Part shown: positions 7,066 through 17,431 of the stretch, piece by piece
Layout of the letters: each line of letters begins with the position of its first letter
Numbering within the stretch: position 1 is the stretch's first letter
Source: an uncultured bacterium
GTDB lineage: Bacteria; CAIJMQ01
Direction of reading: 5' to 3'
Length of the DNA: 19,489 nucleotides
Assembly: GCA_964573245.1 (NCBI GenBank)
Contig: CAZNJA010000019.1
Coordinates: forward strand, 1-19,489
Made by a program: the position numbers and the translations under genes
The notes under the pieces: model-generated
Seen by the model: the letters and a program-made list of their open reading frames with translations, nothing else
Told to the model about the DNA's origin: nothing
Databases searched by the model: none

Positions 7066-7551
7066 ATGCACACTTTAACAAGTCTTATCGTAATATTTTT
7101 TATTTTCATCTCATCCACCATATACGCAATAGAGCCAACGGTAAACTTTTCCGGAACATGGTCTTTAAATAGCGATAAAACCTTACTGCAAGGGAAAAGG
7201 ACATCTGCCCAAGGAGAGATGGACATCCGCCAAGAAGAAAATAGTCTAACCATTAAAAGGATTTCGCCGGGTCGGCAAGAGGACACAGTTATAAGTATTG
7301 AAGAATTACCGTTAGACGGACAAGAAAAAGACATTGTGATATCCGGCAAACGCGCAAAATTATATGTGAGTTGGTCAACAGACGGCAAAAAAATGACAAT
7401 TTTCTATATTATTCTTTTTGCCCAAAACGATACTAGAACCACTACTGAAGTTTGGGAACTGTCAGAAGACGGAAAAACTCTTTCAATCAATTACACATCT
7501 AAATCATCCAAAGGCACACGAACAGCCACCTATGTTTATGACAAACAATGA
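7066..7551 (+). CDS. Hypothetical exported protein, lipocalin-like beta-barrel possible
   Basis: Signal peptide ending IYA; FSGTWSLN motif; beta-strand-rich; ATGA overlap with the next gene. Confidence 0.7.
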   Translation: MHTLTSLIVIFFIFISSTIYAIEPTVNFSGTWSLNSDKTLLQGKRTSAQGEMDIRQEENSLTIKRISPGRQEDTVISIEELPLDGQEKDIVISGKRAKLYVSWSTDGKKMTIFYIILFAQNDTRTTTEVWELSEDGKTLSINYTSKSSKGTRTATYVYDKQ

Positions 7552-9386: not shown

Positions 9387-9683
9387 ATGGCAAACGGTCA
9401 AGGGGAACAAAAAAAAGAAATAAAAGTCAGTTGTCCGCCGCATCTGCAGAGCGGCTCATATTCCAATAATATGATAGTTATGCATACTAAAGAAGAATTC
9501 GTGATGGATTTTTTGATGATTGTCCCGCCGGCAGGGACTGTAACCTCAAGAGTAATCTTAAGCCCCGGACACGTGAAAAGAATGATAAAAGCATTGCAGG
9601 ACAATATCGCCAAATACGAAACAAAATTCGGCGTCATCCAAGCCGCCGAAGAACCCAAAGGCAAAATGGGGTTTCATGCGTAA
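9387..9683 (+). CDS. DUF3467 family protein
   Basis: SD AAGGAGG; G.YSN..IV.HT.EEFVMDF...RVILSPGH.KR...AL..NI.KYE.KFG pattern. Confidence 0.85.
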   Translation: MANGQGEQKKEIKVSCPPHLQSGSYSNNMIVMHTKEEFVMDFLMIVPPAGTVTSRVILSPGHVKRMIKALQDNIAKYETKFGVIQAAEEPKGKMGFHA

Positions 9684-9698
9684 AAAAAGGAGGATAGT

Positions 9699-10445
9699 AT
9701 GAAAACTTTCCTAAATGTTTTGTGTACTGTGTTATTTATTTTAGTTTTTTCGCAGGTTGCTTTTACTTTAGATGAAGAAGAGCCACGTTTAATCACGGTT
9801 ACAGGCGATGCTGAAGTAAGAGTTGTGCCTGATGAGGTTATTCTTACTCTTGGTGTAGAAACATCAAACAAGGATTTAAACGTTGCCAAAAAAGAGAATG
9901 ATGAAAAAGTAAAAGGGGTAGTTGAAGTTGCAAAGAAATACAAAATAGAAGGTAAACACATACAAACCGATTATATTAGCGTTGAGCCGCGATATAAATC
10001 CCAGTGGGAACAGAAAACATTTGTCGGTTATTTTGTAAGAAAATCAATTGTTATTACTTTAAAAGATACTTCAGAATTTGAAAATGTCTTAAGCAGTGTA
10101 CTTAATGCAGGAGCAAATTACGTCCACGGTGTTCAGTTCCGCACTACAGAACTTCGCAAATATAGAGACCAAGCACGAGCTCTTGCAATTAAGGCAGCCC
10201 AAGAAAAAGCCAATGCATTAGCCAAAGAATTGGGCCAAAAAGTAGGTAAACCTTATAAAATCAATGAAAATCATGTTGGGTCATGGTCATGGTATAACAA
10301 CTGGTGGGGTTCCCGCTGGGGAGGAGCAATGACTCAGAATGTCATACAGAATGTAGGCGAGTCATCTTCTGCAATGGACAGCACAATAGAATTGGGACAG
10401 ATAAATGTTAATGCAAAAGTTACAGTCAGCTTTGAGCTTGAATAA
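9699..10445 (+). CDS. SIMPL domain (DUF541) exported protein
   Basis: Signal peptide; ITVTGDAEVRVVPD, IQTD.ISVEPRY, AIKAAQEKA.ALA..LG, terminal V.A.VTVSFEL; SD AGGAGG. Confidence 0.9.
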   Translation: MKTFLNVLCTVLFILVFSQVAFTLDEEEPRLITVTGDAEVRVVPDEVILTLGVETSNKDLNVAKKENDEKVKGVVEVAKKYKIEGKHIQTDYISVEPRYKSQWEQKTFVGYFVRKSIVITLKDTSEFENVLSSVLNAGANYVHGVQFRTTELRKYRDQARALAIKAAQEKANALAKELGQKVGKPYKINENHVGSWSWYNNWWGSRWGGAMTQNVIQNVGESSSAMDSTIELGQINVNAKVTVSFELE

Positions 10446-10475
10446 AATTTGGCTTTTTGGGTGGGGGAAAAATAC

Positions 10476-10510
10476 AGTTATAAGTTTTAAGTGGTAAGTT
10501 ATAAGTAGAA
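10476..10510. repeat. 7-nt tandem repeat AGTnnnA x5
   Basis: AGTTATA AGTTTTA AGTGGTA AGTTATA AGTAGAA. Confidence 0.6.
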
Positions 10511-10521
10511 AGGAGAACACA

Positions 10522-10902
10522 TTGAAGATATTTCCGGACAAATTGACAGATAGTGAATATGTAGAACGCATTAGAGTTTCTTTAAAAAGACGCTGGATAA
10601 AATTTTATATCTTTTTGGGGATAAGTATGGTGTTTTTCGCTATTGTATATTTTCTTGGTAGAGATTTGTTTAGTAAAGTCATAAGTTTATGTAATGCTAT
10701 AACTGCCCAATCAATTCCTAATGTACCTCCAGACAGTAAAACATTAATATTGATAGGTATAGTTGCTGGTACATTAATCGCTGTTCTCTTATTTACAGCG
10801 GGTAGTTTCTTGGTTCAGACTATGGAAATCGCTTTTAGTAATCGTAAAGACCAGATGCTTGTTAAATATTTTGATGAAGCTAACAAAAACAAGAATTCTT
10901 GA
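10522..10902 (+). CDS. Hypothetical 2-TM membrane protein
   Basis: TTG start with SD AAGGAG; two hydrophobic segments. Confidence 0.7.
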   Translation: MKIFPDKLTDSEYVERIRVSLKRRWIKFYIFLGISMVFFAIVYFLGRDLFSKVISLCNAITAQSIPNVPPDSKTLILIGIVAGTLIAVLLFTAGSFLVQTMEIAFSNRKDQMLVKYFDEANKNKNS

Positions 10903-10926
10903 CTTTTTAGTTGTAAAGAGTAGAAT
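10899..10926 (+). promoter_or_regulatory. Putative sigma70 promoter upstream of cas12a
   Basis: TTGACT (10899-10904), 16 nt, TAGAAT (10921-10926); each box 5/6 consensus. Confidence 0.65.
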
Positions 10927-10932
10927 TAGTGA

Positions 10933-11054
10933 AAGTTTAATAGTCCTGAGTTTCGAAGGGGGAACCTGGACATTAAAACCAGTTAAAAGTTGGTCCGCCA
11001 AATTTTTAGTGGTGGAAAGAAAAACCTTCGCTTGAAAAAGGCGAAGGTTTTTTT
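10933..11054 (+). ncRNA. Putative structured leader RNA / sRNA upstream of cas12a (family not recognised)
   Basis: Three consecutive hairpins (10936-10977, 10978-10994, 10994-11016) between the promoter and an intrinsic terminator. Confidence 0.5.
11020..11054 (+). terminator. Rho-independent terminator 36 nt upstream of the cas12a start
   Basis: AAAAACCTTCGC / GCGAAGGTTTTT stem, GAAA loop, T7 tract at 11048-11054. Confidence 0.85.
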
Positions 11055-11090
11055 ATTTGCGTATTTAAATAAATCGCAAAGGAGGTCTTT

Positions 11091-14000
11091 ATGAGTATGA
11101 ATGATTTTGTGGGGAAGTATGCTTTATCAAAAACACTGAGATTTGAATTAAAGCCGTGGGGTGAAACAGCGGAAAAAATCGAGGATTTCAAGAACAAAGC
11201 CATCGTATCAATTGTTGGGCAGGACAGGCAAAGGGCAGAAGATTACAAAAGAATCAAAAAAATTATAGATGATTATCATCGGGGCTTTATTGAACGGGTG
11301 CTTAGACAAGAGATACTACCAGAAGATGATATTCAAAAGGCATTCGTCGCATATATAGCTTTTAAAGGTTCAAAAGATGATGCTAAAAAGAAACAATACC
11401 AGGCTGTTCAAAAAAAACTTAGAATGAAAATAGCCAAAGCATTCGAAAACCAGTTTGGTGCATACAGCTTGTTTGATGCCGGGTTGCTAAATAAAAAAGG
11501 TTCCGGTAAAAATAAAATAAAAGGCGTTCTCTGGCACTGGCTTAAATACCGGCTCAATAAAAAGGAAATTAGTCAGCAGGAATTTAGCGAAGCAGAAAAT
11601 CTAGTAAAAAACTTCGATAAGTTTTCCACCTATTTCAAGGGCTTTAATGAAAACAGGAAAAATATCTATTCAGCCAAGGAACAACAGACAGCTATCAGTT
11701 ACAGAATTGTCCACGATAATATGGTCAGGCATTTTAACAACTGTCTGAGCTTTGAGGCAATTCAGCAAAATCATAAAACCCTTGCGGGACAATTGAAAAA
11801 TTATTCTGATGTTTTTACTGAAGTAGCTTTTAAGAACTATTTAGGCCAAAGCGGAATTGACAGTTACAACGAAAAGATAGGACACAAATCCGATGACATA
11901 AATGCTAGAGGCGTAAATCAGATGATTAATGAGTATTGTCAGAAAAACAGCACTAATGATAAAAAGATTAAACTGCCGAAAATGGCAATACTATATAAGC
12001 AAATCTTGAGCGATGTTGAGGACAAGTTTAAAATCGATGCCTTTGAGAATGACAGGCAAATGCTTGAAACAATAGAGCAATTCTATCAGGAAATTAAAAA
12101 TGATTTGGATGATTTAGAAAACTGTTTAGGGCAATATCTTACGGTGCATAATCTTGGCAAAATAAATTTAAAAAAGGACTCTCTGATAGATATATCACGA
12201 AGGCTCTTCGGGAATTGGGGCTTCGTAAACTCCGCATTGGAAAAATATGCGGACGAGATATTAAAACTAAACAAAAATAAAAAAGAAAAATGGCTCAAGC
12301 AGGAAACTTTTTCAATCGATGAAATTCAAAAAGCATTGAATAGAGCTGTAGAGGGTACAGAACATAAAACACTTGCTCAATATTTTTCAGATTTAAAAGT
12401 TTACGACAAGGGGAAAGAAGAATGCTTGATAAAACGGGTCGAAAACGCTTATAAGGATGCTGAAGAAGTGTTATCACTCAGCGAGTTAGATAAAGACCGC
12501 CACGAACCAAGAGACGGGAAAGAAGGAGGCAAAGGATTTCTCCAGATCGAAAAAATAAAGGAACTACTGGATTCAATTATGGCATTTGTTCAGTTCGTTA
12601 AGCCGCTTTACTTATTCAAAGGCGGCAAAGCTATCGAAATAGGCGATAAACACACCGATTTTTACGATACATTTGATGTCTTATACAAACGAATCTCGTC
12701 CGTAATCGGGATTTACAACAAAACACGAAACTATGTTACCAAGAAGCCTTATTCAACGGAAAAGTTTAAGATAAATTTTGAGACCTCTACATTGTTTGAC
12801 GGCTGGGATGTAAATAAAGAGACCGCCAATTCTGGCATTTTGCTTTTGAAAAACGGAAAGTATTATCTTGGCATAATAAAAAAAGATGCAACAGATATAT
12901 TTAACTATATACTTAAAGCTGATGATTCAGATAATAAAAAGCAAGCCAAAAAGATTTTAAAACAGCAAATTGTTGCAAGTAGTTCAGAAGATTATTATGA
13001 AAAGATGATTTACAAATTATTACCTAGCCCATCGAAAATGCTTCCAAAAGTATTTTTTGCTGATTTGAATATAGCGCACTATAATCCATTAAAGGAGATT
13101 TTAGAAATAAGAGAAAAAGGGTTATATAAAAAGGAGTCAAACAATCCAAAAGCAATGCGACAATGGATTGATTTCCTTAAGGGATCCATTAAAAAACATC
13201 CTGAATGGGGTTCATATTTCTCTTTTGATTTTTCCCCTACTTCCCAATATACCGATATAAGCGGATTCTATAAAGAAGTTGCAGAACAGGGATATAATAT
13301 ATCTTTCGATAAAATTAAGACAAGCTATATAAACGAAAAGGTCAAGAACGGAGAATTGTATTTATTTGAGATTTATAACAAAGATTTTTCCCCTTACAGC
13401 AAAGGCAGACCTAATCTGCACACAAGTTATTGGAAATTGCTTTTTAGCCGAAAAAACCTCGATAATCTTGTATTAAAACTAAACGGAGAAGCTGAAATCT
13501 TTTGCCGACCTGCTTCAATCAAAAAAAATGGGACCACTATTCACAAAGCAGGGCAACAGATTAGCAACAAAAATCCTCTTAACCCTAAAAAACAAAGCAA
13601 ATTTGCTTATGATATTGTAAAAGATAGAAGGTTTACACGGGACAAATTCTTTTTCCATTGCCCGATTACACTTAATTTCAGGGCAGCATCAATAGCAGGT
13701 AGATTCAACGATGCTGCAAATAAATATCTCAAAGATGATCCCAACGTTAACATTATCGGCATAGATAGGGGGGAAAGGCACTTGCTTTATTATTCGGTTA
13801 TAAATAAAAACGGTCAAATATTAAAGCAGGGAAGTCTCAACTCTATTACCAACAGTTACAATAGCAATAGTAAAAATGTGGAAATAAAAATAGATTACCG
13901 CCAACTATTGAATGGAAAAGAAAAGCAACGCGATATCGCCAGAAAGTCCTGGTCAACAATCGAAAATATAAAGGAATTGAAGAGCGGATACCTTTCTCAT

Positions 14001-14930
14001 ATTGTCCATAAGATAGCCCTGCTGATGATTAAATATAATGCGATTGTTGTCTTGGAAGACTTGAATTTTGGGTTTAAGAGGGGAAGATTCAAAGTCGAAA
14101 AGCAGGTTTATCAGAAATTCGAAAAAGCCCTTATTGACAAACTCAATTACCTTGTTTTTAAAGATAGAAGATCGGGCGAAGCAGGACATTACTTAAAGGG
14201 TTATCAATTAACGGCCCTATTTGATAGCTTCCAAAAATTGGGAAAACAAAGCGGCTTTCTGTTTTATGTGATGTCGCATTATACTTCGAAAATAGACCCG
14301 ATAACGGGTTTTGTAAACTTGTTTGGGGCCACTTATGAAAGCATCAGAAAATCACAGGAGTTTTTCAGGAAATTCAACAATATCGTTTATAACGTCCAAA
14401 AGGATTATTTTGAATTTTCCTTTAATTATGCAAATTTTTTCCCGGATAAATCCGGTTCAAAAAAGAAATGGACCGTATGCACGGCAGGTAAAGAAAGATA
14501 CAGATACAACAAAGATAATAAAGAATATATTTGTTGCGATGTTACGGAAGAATTCAAACGGCTGTTAAAAGATAATGGTATCAATTACGAAAATGGTGGA
14601 AATATTATAAAAGCAATCACAAATAAAGAGGAAAAATCATTCTTCCAAAGATTGCATTTTTTGTTAAGCATGACTTTGCAATTACGTCATATATACAAAG
14701 ATGGCGATGAGGAAAAAGATTTTATCCTTTCGCCTGTTGCGGATAAGGATGGCAATTTCTTTGATTCCCGAAAGGCAAAAGAAAACCAGCCGCAAAATGC
14801 TGACGCCAACGGGGCATACAATATTGCAAGAAAAGGGCTTATGGTTTTGGAGCGTATAAGAACGGAAGGTAAGCCCGGCATTATAAAAAATGCTGAGTGG
14901 TTTGATTTTGCTCAGGGCGTGAGGAAATAA
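11091..14930 (+). CDS. cas12a: Type V-A CRISPR effector Cas12a (Cpf1), 1279 aa
   Basis: N-terminal Y.LSKTLRFELKP; FSTYFKGFNENRKNIYS; YNKTRNYVTKKPYSTEKFKINF; KMLPKVFF; RuvC motifs IIGIDRGERHL, VVLEDLNFGFKRGR, NADANGAYNIARKG intact; SD AAGGAGGT. Confidence 0.98.
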   Translation: MSMNDFVGKYALSKTLRFELKPWGETAEKIEDFKNKAIVSIVGQDRQRAEDYKRIKKIIDDYHRGFIERVLRQEILPEDDIQKAFVAYIAFKGSKDDAKKKQYQAVQKKLRMKIAKAFENQFGAYSLFDAGLLNKKGSGKNKIKGVLWHWLKYRLNKKEISQQEFSEAENLVKNFDKFSTYFKGFNENRKNIYSAKEQQTAISYRIVHDNMVRHFNNCLSFEAIQQNHKTLAGQLKNYSDVFTEVAFKNYLGQSGIDSYNEKIGHKSDDINARGVNQMINEYCQKNSTNDKKIKLPKMAILYKQILSDVEDKFKIDAFENDRQMLETIEQFYQEIKNDLDDLENCLGQYLTVHNLGKINLKKDSLIDISRRLFGNWGFVNSALEKYADEILKLNKNKKEKWLKQETFSIDEIQKALNRAVEGTEHKTLAQYFSDLKVYDKGKEECLIKRVENAYKDAEEVLSLSELDKDRHEPRDGKEGGKGFLQIEKIKELLDSIMAFVQFVKPLYLFKGGKAIEIGDKHTDFYDTFDVLYKRISSVIGIYNKTRNYVTKKPYSTEKFKINFETSTLFDGWDVNKETANSGILLLKNGKYYLGIIKKDATDIFNYILKADDSDNKKQAKKILKQQIVASSSEDYYEKMIYKLLPSPSKMLPKVFFADLNIAHYNPLKEILEIREKGLYKKESNNPKAMRQWIDFLKGSIKKHPEWGSYFSFDFSPTSQYTDISGFYKEVAEQGYNISFDKIKTSYINEKVKNGELYLFEIYNKDFSPYSKGRPNLHTSYWKLLFSRKNLDNLVLKLNGEAEIFCRPASIKKNGTTIHKAGQQISNKNPLNPKKQSKFAYDIVKDRRFTRDKFFFHCPITLNFRAASIAGRFNDAANKYLKDDPNVNIIGIDRGERHLLYYSVINKNGQILKQGSLNSITNSYNSNSKNVEIKIDYRQLLNGKEKQRDIARKSWSTIENIKELKSGYLSHIVHKIALLMIKYNAIVVLEDLNFGFKRGRFKVEKQVYQKFEKALIDKLNYLVFKDRRSGEAGHYLKGYQLTALFDSFQKLGKQSGFLFYVMSHYTSKIDPITGFVNLFGATYESIRKSQEFFRKFNNIVYNVQKDYFEFSFNYANFFPDKSGSKKKWTVCTAGKERYRYNKDNKEYICCDVTEEFKRLLKDNGINYENGGNIIKAITNKEEKSFFQRLHFLLSMTLQLRHIYKDGDEEKDFILSPVADKDGNFFDSRKAKENQPQNADANGAYNIARKGLMVLERIRTEGKPGIIKNAEWFDFAQGVRK

Positions 14931-16837: not shown

Positions 16838-17431
16838 GTCTAATAGACAGAGTAAATTTCTACTATTGTAGATCATTCCCATTATCTGCCATAAAATCGT
16901 CTAATAGACAGAGTAAATTTCTACTATTGTAGATGGCATTATTTCCCCCCTTCCTTGAGGTCTAATAGACAGAGTAAATTTCTACTATTGTAGATCCATT
17001 ATCTGTATATCAAGATGATATTGTCTAATAGACAGAGTAAATTTCTACTATTGTAGATTCCTACAAGATTTTCATAGTAGGATTGTCTAATAGACAGAGT
17101 AAATTTCTACTATTGTAGATCATATATACCGCACTGCCCGTAAAAGTCTAATAGACAGAGTAAATTTCTACTATTGTAGATTAATATCAACGTTCAGTAT
17201 AGACAAGTCTAATAGACAGAGTAAATTTCTACTATTGTAGATTCTTACCGCAAAACGGACAAGGTTTTGTCTAATAGACAGAGTAAATTTCTACTATTGT
17301 AGATATTATAGTATATCAGATATATTTACGTCTAATAGACAGAGTAAATTTCTACTATTGTAGATGCAGGGCGAGGATTATCAGTCAATAGAAAGGTCTA
17401 ATAGACAGAGTAAATTTCTACTATCGAAAAG
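16838..17431 (+). CRISPR. Type V-A CRISPR array: 36-nt repeat GTCTAATAGACAGAGTAAATTTCTACTATTGTAGAT, 9 identical copies + 1 degenerate terminal copy, 9 spacers of 25-30 nt
   Basis: Repeat starts 16838, 16899, 16960, 17023, 17085, 17146, 17207, 17269, 17330, 17396 (last diverges after 17424); 3' AATTTCTAC-TATT-GTAGAT is the Cas12a handle. Confidence 0.99.

Follow-up and report, generated by a model that had tools for sequence, protein, structure and literature searches.

A conserved leader ahead of cas12a and other defense and DNA-repair genes as a candidate pseudoknot-versus-terminator attenuator

We analyzed a stretch of 19,489 nucleotides (nt) from an uncultured bacterium (contig CAZNJA010000019.1; the window, below, is that whole stretch), in which a promoter, a run of hairpins and an intrinsic terminator stand directly ahead of a cas12a operon. 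We put the probability at roughly 60% that this segment, positions 10899-11054, belongs to a conserved family of 5' leaders acting in cis to regulate transcription termination ahead of the following gene. The best reading of the leader is a pseudoknot-versus-terminator attenuator, a candidate riboswitch class. Judged by sequence comparison, it is previously undescribed, widely conserved and not specific to Cas12a, and it stands before many anti-phage and DNA-repair genes that it probably switches together by controlled termination. A sequence-only reading of the window had described the promoter, three hairpins (P1-P3), the terminator and a complementarity between CGAAGG and CCTTCG, and all of these are present at the coordinates given here:

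10899-10926, + strand: sigma-70-type promoter TTGACT-16 nt-TAGAAT (-35 element 10899-10904, -10 element 10921-10926), from sequence reading and a promoter scan.
10943-10971, + strand: core of the P1 hairpin, GUCCUGAGUUUCGAAGGGGGAACCUGGAC, from folding (-9.9 kcal/mol).
10955-10959, + strand: GAAGG in the P1 loop, on its 5' side; near-universal among copies and the putative 5' pseudoknot strand.
10972-11024, + strand: A-rich linker (AUUAAA ... AAAGAAAAA) carrying the optional P2 and P3, from sequence and copy comparison.
10978-10982 with 10990-10994, + strand: P2 hairpin, optional, inside the linker.
10995-11000 with 11010-11015, + strand: P3 hairpin, optional, inside the linker.
11018-11054, + strand: intrinsic terminator with a 16-base-pair (bp) stem, a GAAAA loop and a run of 7 U, from folding (-20.9 kcal/mol).
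11025-11029, + strand: CCUUC, nearly invariant, with which the pairing of the conserved terminator 5'-arm core begins; putative 3' pseudoknot strand.
11078-11085, + strand: cas12a ribosome-binding site, AAAGGAGG, from sequence reading.
11091-14930, + strand: cas12a, 1279 amino acids (aa), first gene of cas12a-cas4-cas1-cas2, with Pfam RuvC_1, NUC, REC1, REC2 and PI domains; Cas4, Cas1 and Cas2 were matched too.

In the proposed mechanism, transcription would begin ∼7 nt past TAGAAT, and the nascent RNA would form P1, presenting GAAGG on the 5' side of its loop. The A-rich linker would come next, bearing P2 and P3 in the window copy, and would be followed by CCUUC, which opens the conserved part of the terminator 5' arm. 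Were CCUUC to pair with the loop GAAGG, an H-type pseudoknot would form with the linker lying along P1, the terminator would be blocked, and RNA polymerase would read into cas12a-cas4-cas1-cas2; otherwise the 16-bp terminator would form and only a short RNA of ∼120 nt would be made. How could so small a helix prevail? Since a pseudoknot of 5-6 pairs cannot by itself outcompete a 16-bp terminator, we infer a signal that stabilizes the pseudoknot, i.e. an ON switch. This signal is most likely a small molecule or ion, hence the candidate riboswitch class.

The case for this reading comes from comparison, which bears on the anatomy of the leader, its recurrence, the covariation of P1 and terminator, the co-conservation of loop and tail with two co-changes, and the cis arrangement. 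In the window, CGAAGG (10954-10959) is exactly complementary to CCTTCG (11025-11030), and the CGAAGG:CCUUCG duplex is predicted at -9.1 kcal/mol. The whole RNA folds at -45.3 kcal/mol (z = -5.5; 0 of 200 shuffles as good), and the leader folded without its terminator gives z = -2.3 (4 of 200 shuffles as good); because most of the z-score comes from the terminator, folding energy alone is weak support for P1-P3. The U run of the terminator ends 36 nt ahead of the cas12a ATG (11091); a simple terminator scan missed the hairpin at 11018-11054 owing to its loop rule. The -35 element overlaps the TGA stop (10900-10902) of an upstream open reading frame (ORF) of 126 aa, and on the + strand of 9500-12000 TTGACT/TAGAAT is the best match and the sole promoter-like site with 10 of 12 consensus positions. 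A + strand scan between the terminator and cas12a (11054-11091) found no second promoter-like site, as the sequence-only reading had stated. The unit stands above chance because it recurs and covaries in more than 80 other loci, not because of the promoter match.

The nearest copies lie in the same and in a congeneric genome. On a different contig of the window's genome, a second copy has identical P1 and terminator and lacks P2 and P3; the similarity between the two is bounded, beginning exactly at the -35 element and stopping at the T-run. Behind this copy, at a distance of 21 nt, come a TdeIII restriction endonuclease gene and then an N6/N4 DNA methyltransferase gene. A third copy, in the congeneric genome, carries P2 and P3 and precedes a PD-(D/E)XK protein matching the PADLOC system PDC-S02 at 8e-153.

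Wider searches extended the family to a second phylum. In a species-genome collection, a 21-letter P1 pattern found 3 loci, in records that the depositors themselves labeled Planctomycetia, Deltaproteobacteria and Candidatus Omnitrophota metagenome-assembled genomes. A relaxed P1 pattern found 28 loci in metagenome contigs: 26 have the A-rich linker, CCTTC and a terminator, and the remaining 2 (L039 and L047; L and G numbers are our handles for loci and genomes), GC-rich and devoid of those features, are chance matches. Viral contigs gave 0 matches to the P1 pattern. A covariance model built from 6 copies found the leader in 3 of 9 genomes of the window's phylum; a model built from 26 copies, run on 151 sampled genomes of the second phylum (to which the Omnitrophota-labeled genome belongs), found it in 48 of them, with 84 matches and at most 5 per genome, the sampled genomes being interrelated and many of them incomplete. 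At least one of these 84 matches is a terminator on the reverse strand, and one other (L092) has a different hairpin. Applied to 41 relatives of the window's genome, the 26-copy model matched 4, including 1 of 32 outgroup genomes, whose match is on reading a true member with the basal stem GUGC/GCAC.

The promoter belongs to what recurs: of 88 distinct copies, 59 have a promoter-like site in the 70 nt ahead of P1, as against 28 of 396 control windows, and in most copies it is 13-29 nt upstream. The misses are mostly downstream members of leader series and the AlwI class, where TATATA fails the scan rule. The outer P1 extension of the window copy, TTTAAT/ATTAAA, is not conserved in other copies.

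To judge whether the hairpins are maintained as structures, we counted base pairs in 66 copies aligned to the model. Both sides change in 15 of the 23 pairs of P1 and terminator (6 of 10 and 9 of 13, respectively), a count reached by 0 of 500 shuffles, so that the structural conservation proposed as a check by the sequence-only reading is observed. In the same alignment, which was fitted to the covariance model and so favors structure, 94.3% of cells are paired, compared with 63-64% when partners are slid by one column. The covariation is also visible by eye: the basal stem GUCC/GGAC swaps to GUGG/CCAC, GUCG/CGAC or GUGC/GCAC, and P1 pair 6-24 changes from G-C to A-U. In the P1 core of the window, two pyrimidines oppose each other as a mismatch at positions 5/25, and the base at position 7 is bulged; among copies, positions 5 and 25 are kept as a mismatch (U.U, C.C or C.U; rarely U.G, C.A or A-U). 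The apical stem has two forms, ...GAAGGGGGAAC and ...GAAGGAAUAAAUC, with GAAGG at the 5' side of the loop in both. The typical linker is A-rich, (N)UUAAAAAAG(U/C/A)AAAA. P2 and P3 form an optional two-hairpin insert at one fixed place in this linker, where some copies carry longer inserts; it recurs in L005, L041, L021, L098 and L087, with both-side changes in 4 of 13 pairs, a count that understates the helices since 2 of 6 rows were misplaced in the MAFFT alignment. Thus the leader holds a conserved structured 5' domain of the kind generic to riboswitches, with a promoter upstream of P1 and with covariation.

The pairing of loop and tail, on which the switch would depend, can be followed through the same copies. 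GAAGG:CCUUC is perfect in about 62 of 86 distinct copies, a tally in which the window, L048, the L033 second copy, L098 and the L063 second copy were read by eye. In two lineages the strands have changed together: the second leader of L021 (2216-2321) pairs GGAGA with UCUCC, two compensatory changes in five pairs, and L101 has the loop AAAGG with the tail CCUUU. In L102 and L091 427-546 one altered side leaves a G-U pair. CCUUC is nearly invariant, while the terminator 3' arm facing it varies (GCGAAGG, GCGGAGG, GCGAGGG, GUGAAGG, GCGGGGG, and one mismatched copy); because the 3' arm drifts while CCUUC stays, the 5' arm must be constrained by more than the terminator. By sequence, the mutually exclusive expression platform expected of a riboswitch is present, CCUUC being at once the proposed pseudoknot strand and the terminator 5' arm; in L021 2216-2321 and L056 1390-1491 the tail is instead the anti-Shine-Dalgarno strand. 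The P1 5' strand is directly followed by the pseudoknot 5' strand, and the linker is 14-16 nt long and A-rich, against a P1 of ∼10 bp, a geometry that would fit a classical H-type pseudoknot with the linker running along P1. Of the earlier suggestion that an attenuator or riboswitch gates the operon, the recurrence of the unit and the compensatory changes in P1, P2 and P3 bear out the structural part, and the P1-tip/terminator pairing proposed with it is co-conserved and covaries in these two lineages; the conditional read-through would follow from the same sequences.

The arrangement relative to the next gene points to action in cis. Of 61 junctions, about 40 have the start of the next ORF no more than 60 nt from the end of the model match, which itself lies ∼10 nt beyond the T-run, and a Shine-Dalgarno sequence is often found 5-25 nt past the T-run, ahead of that ORF. 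Measured from the T-run, the distance to the gene start is usually 5-60 nt. The downstream gene mostly has no room for a promoter of its own. In the divergent L021 2216-2321 and L056 1390-1491, the helix that follows the tail takes the Shine-Dalgarno sequence of the gene itself, beside the AUG, into its pairing, and we read these copies as the same switch logic with a translational output. Leaders also occur in series with a promoter only on the first: three in L103, and two in each of L022, L026, L038, L045, L061 and L091.

Two loci show rearranged copies. L033 100-1130(-) has a complete leader, small ORFs of 73 and 151 aa without a family match, and then a second leader in which the basal P1 stem is destroyed and an AlwI-class terminator and second promoter follow; this has the look of a cassette of genes that was inserted into a leader or recombined there. 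L015 1920-2066(-) is a decayed copy with the tail CCUCC and without a proper terminator, located just downstream of an IS3-type HTH_Tnp_1 ORF and adjoining a C-terminal fragment of an AIPR abortive-infection gene.

After near-identical loci had been collapsed, 63 junctions were classed by Pfam and PADLOC names; for 8 further copies, at contig ends or with short flanks, no downstream ORF was scored. The genes directly behind the leader are:

Restriction-modification, 11 junctions: TdeIII (2), AlwI, AlwI-like with a D12 methylase, Eco57I-like, BsoBI, and D12, C5 and N6/N4 methylases.
CRISPR, 2 junctions: cas12a of the window and a type I-E cas3.
CBASS, 1 junction: HNH-SAVED effector with a CD-NTase.
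SspB, 1 junction.
PADLOC candidate systems, 6 junctions: PDC-S02, S05, S11, S13, S16 and S23.
Other defense-like, 7 junctions: RmuC, DUF4062 (2), an SMC-like ATPase, a GHKL ATPase, an MBL protein with a prokaryotic E2, and an AIPR fragment.
Radical-SAM/HhH proteins, 6 junctions.
RadC, 2 junctions, one with a methylase.
NUDIX, 1 junction.
TPR proteins, 6 junctions.
Proton_antipo_M, 3 junctions, all behind one diverged leader subclass.
SIMPL, 1 junction.
Transglutaminase-like, 1 junction.
No family, 15 junctions.

Upstream of the leaders the genes are a mixture of housekeeping and defense or mobile genes. We would give rather less than even odds to a larger idea: a new riboswitch-like leader class, present in at least two phyla, that puts unrelated immune and DNA-repair genes under one intracellular signal, an RNA-encoded 'immune regulon'. 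Such a regulon may span several restriction-modification types, type V-A cas12a, type I-E cas3, CBASS, Ssp and six PADLOC candidates, together with the repair genes radical-SAM/HhH and RadC, and its signal could be an infection- or DNA-damage-related metabolite, read by the pseudoknot directly or via a GAF-ANTAR protein.

Several of these neighborhoods have features of their own. The diverged subclass (L054 1253-1358(-), L088 178-283(+) and L090 194-298(+)) has the P1 GUUCCGAGUUUU(G)AAGGUGGGUCUGG and a different linker, and all three copies precede a Proton_antipo_M (Mrp/Nuo-type antiporter) gene rather than a defense gene; it may be a specificity variant, as it would be if the immune regulon were real. 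In L072, L073 and L075 a conserved ORF of ∼60 aa (MKKTTIE...) without a Pfam match lies 70-90 nt after the leader, ahead of D12 or C5 DNA methyltransferase genes, and may encode a controller protein. In the congeneric L005 (2-1203), a Fic-domain ORF and an MNT/HepT toxin-antitoxin pair precede the leader and PDC-S02 and RadC follow it, a layout resembling a small defense island. The second gene upstream of the leader in the window (9699-10445) is a SIMPL (DUF541) gene; in another genome a SIMPL gene stands directly behind a leader (L060 1668-2420).

Elsewhere in the window, an array of ten 36-nt CRISPR repeats (GTCTAATAGACAGAGTAAATTTCTACTATTGTAGAT), 61-66 nt apart, lies downstream of cas2 at 16838-17424; its last repeat is degenerate at the 3' end, and the AT-rich ∼100 nt between cas2 and the first repeat may hold a promoter for the array. 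An imperfect 21-nt tandem repeat (2.5 copies, 7189-7241) lies within the ORF at 7066-7551.

The attenuator reading has to be weighed against a number of observations that count against it. Promoter-like matches taken alone are within chance (9 sites, against 7.0 ± 2.5 in shuffles), and the pair counts come from an alignment that leans toward structure. The loop-tail pairing shows little variation by which to test it; its outermost pair is lost in the CAAGG, AAAGG:CCUUC and UAAGG lineages, and L046 has GAAUG with CCUUU, a mismatch in mid-helix. Metabolically, the downstream genes have nothing in common that would suggest a ligand. The 8 near-identical loci of the AlwI class, and a few others, have a second, near-consensus promoter beyond the terminator; there the leader is not the sole route of expression. 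Finally, the transcription start, the short RNA and its 3' end, the read-through, the direction of switching and the signal are all deduced from sequence.

The main rival keeps the cis-acting attenuator and changes its effector: a single GAF-ANTAR protein, whose GAF domain senses a ligand, would bind the leader and block the terminator. The genome of the window (G000) does encode one GAF+ANTAR protein of 241 aa (contig C61, L108 1474-2199, - strand). Of the second-phylum genomes, 40 of the 48 with the leader have ANTAR, compared with 54 of the 103 without it (odds ratio 4.5, Fisher p = 0.0003, uncorrected for phylogeny or genome completeness), and among the 41 relatives it is found in all 4 leader-bearing genomes, the sole outgroup one included, and in 9 of the 37 leader-less ones. 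This association is diluted by eight leader-bearing genomes of the second phylum in which no ANTAR was detected, and by the near-core status of ANTAR in the window's phylum, where, with or without the leader, 7 of 9 genomes exceed the family cut-off and G005 has a weak partial match. Furthermore, an ANTAR target, as described in the accessible text of PMC3369931, consists of two mini-hairpins whose hexanucleotide loops have A as their first base and G as their fourth; the second mini-hairpin overlaps the terminator 5' base. No such pair of hexaloops was seen by inspection: P1 carries the loop GAAGGG, and the sole candidate mini-hairpin at the base of the terminator would have UAAAAC as its loop. 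An ANTAR target RNA of the described kind was rejected as an identity on these grounds, with the ANTAR protein itself present in the same genome. The NusG evidence given below, the ANTAR distribution and the hexaloops together make a direct ligand our first choice and leave GAF-ANTAR as its main rival, one that we consider unlikely. The GAF+ANTAR gene of G000 is flanked by a DUF1846 gene and an HhH-GPD base-excision glycosylase gene.

A quite improbable alternative is that the leader answers to no signal and that its terminator simply insulates acquired, potentially toxic genes, which would be expressed by a fixed small read-through or by a polymerase made terminator-resistant in the manner of put. 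The downstream genes are indeed largely accessory and often toxic (e.g. nucleases), the elements lie at borders between housekeeping genes and defense islands, and some loci have the second promoter after the terminator. A factor-free mechanism would also be needed, given a single NusG-family gene. However, a plain insulator needs neither the invariant words GAAGG and CCUUC nor a conserved A-rich linker; it leaves the loop-tail co-changes and the variants that hide the ribosome-binding site unexplained, and two or three leaders in series suit graded regulation better than insulation.

Much less probable still is a stand-alone small RNA gene, whose product of ∼95-130 nt would act in trans on neighboring proteins, Cas12a included, or like an antitoxin; we group with it an integration hot spot for islands. 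A strong promoter and a strong terminator of its own, several copies per genome, and the degenerate second copy behind the inserted two-gene cassette of L033 would suit such a gene or hot spot. Yet serial copies without promoters would be dead genes, the terminator adjoins the ribosome-binding site of the next gene or is replaced by a helix hiding that site, the downstream partners are unrelated proteins, and the leader has neither CRISPR repeat-handle similarity at up to 3 mismatches nor the tandem-repeat layout of type III toxin-antitoxin loci. The suggestion that the leader makes a small RNA associated with Cas12a found no support: cas12a accounts for 1 of the 63 non-redundant junctions, and 401 genomes of the second phylum yielded just one other Cas12a homologue, which lacks the leader. 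Barely credible, lastly, is that the hairpin only terminates the upstream membrane-protein operon behind a chance promoter match, the outcome that the sequence-only reading had named as refuting it: the upstream ORF does stop at 10902 and the promoter match alone is within chance, but the conserved unit includes the promoter even though the genes upstream are unrelated, with the enrichment over controls given above, and the homology of the copies begins at the -35 element.

Other identities were considered and rejected. For a Cas12a-linked guide-like RNA (CreR, CreA, crRNA-like), the 19-nt handle, with up to 3 mismatches allowed, occurs nowhere but in 9 of the array repeats. For a type III toxin-antitoxin (ToxIN-like) locus, 10899-11090 holds no tandem repeat and the downstream families are unrelated. 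For antitermination of the LoaP/RfaH type, PF02357 finds one locus only in G000 (93% complete); because this is a single NusG-family gene, a LoaP-like paralogue is unlikely. A dnaX-like frameshift site (Shine-Dalgarno-like word, A-rich heptamer, hairpin) does not fit either, as all leader frames are closed and the A-run is not a fixed heptamer; nor does a T-box-like reading of GAA as a Glu codon, as the loop variants AAAGG, CAAGG and GGAGA keep no codon. A REP or integron attC-like site was set aside in view of 1-5 copies per genome, a promoter and terminator within the unit, and covariation of the RNA type that includes a conserved mismatch. Small ribozymes such as pistol gave no Rfam match, a result that concerns known ribozymes only.

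How bacteria coordinate their many defense systems is largely an open question, the known controls being system-specific DNA-binding repressors or Cas-guided autorepression. If our reading is correct, poorly known bacteria with ultra-small genomes would have a shared, probably signal-dependent control of immunity at the RNA level. For Cas12a, the prediction is an operon that stays silent unless the terminator is overridden. The element is compact (∼95 nt) and directly testable in vitro, and it opens a way to look for the signal by which immunity is activated. It may also serve as a genomic flag, making uncharacterized genes behind it candidates for new defense functions.

We compared the leader with known systems. 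At the Rfam 15 gathering thresholds, neither the window nor 9 other copies match any family, in line with the earlier failure to assign a riboswitch class, and a permissive scan of 10700-11300 gave only sub-threshold, terminator-driven matches. In the literature on riboswitches, RNA motifs, ANTAR, anti-phage defense, restriction-modification and Omnitrophota/Omnitrophica we found no description of the leader; the accessible text of one Omnitrophota paper that mentions RNA motifs says only that Rfam was run.

Restriction-modification C-proteins, and the autoregulation of cas operons by crRNA-like CreR or long tracrRNA, are each system-specific and act at promoters. Like them, the leader is a short element just upstream that would set restriction-modification or cas expression; unlike them, it is a putative RNA attenuator common to many unrelated systems and has no repeat-like sequence. 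The put RNA of phage HK022, the LoaP leader hairpin and EAR have a long-range effect on polymerase, for which complementarity to a terminator arm is unnecessary. They share with the leader a promoter-proximal structured RNA before intrinsic terminators, ahead of horizontally acquired clusters; the LoaP system differs in its paralogue, which has no counterpart in G000 beside the one NusG-family gene. In ANTAR leaders (the targets of EutV, NasR and AmiR), the bound element overlaps the terminator 5' base and prevents termination, according to the accessible text of PMC3369931. Our leader likewise lies upstream of, and overlaps, the terminator 5' base, and a GAF-ANTAR protein is encoded and co-occurs. 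In contrast to ANTAR targets, its conserved words complement one another and so suggest that RNA pairs with RNA here, rather than that a protein binds two similar sites. The top sub-threshold bit score in Rfam belongs to the PyrR binding-site attenuator (RF00515; 26.7 against a gathering threshold of 54, mostly from the terminator), which has a like order of protein-bound hairpin, antiterminator and terminator and differs in that no pyr genes lie downstream of our leader.

The small H-type pseudoknot riboswitches preQ1-I, SAM-II and SAM-V consist of a short hairpin and an A-rich tail that pairs 4-6 bp with the loop through its 3' end, and their pseudoknot forms in competition with the expression platform, which may be a terminator or may hide the ribosome-binding site in a helix. 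By general description, the architecture of the leader appears closest to small riboswitches of this kind, such as preQ1-I, and its logic closest to terminator/antiterminator attenuators. It differs from these riboswitches in its longer P1 (∼10 bp), with a conserved mismatch and bulge, and in a linker that tolerates two inserted hairpins, and in its gene context, which is defense and DNA repair rather than queuosine or SAM metabolism.

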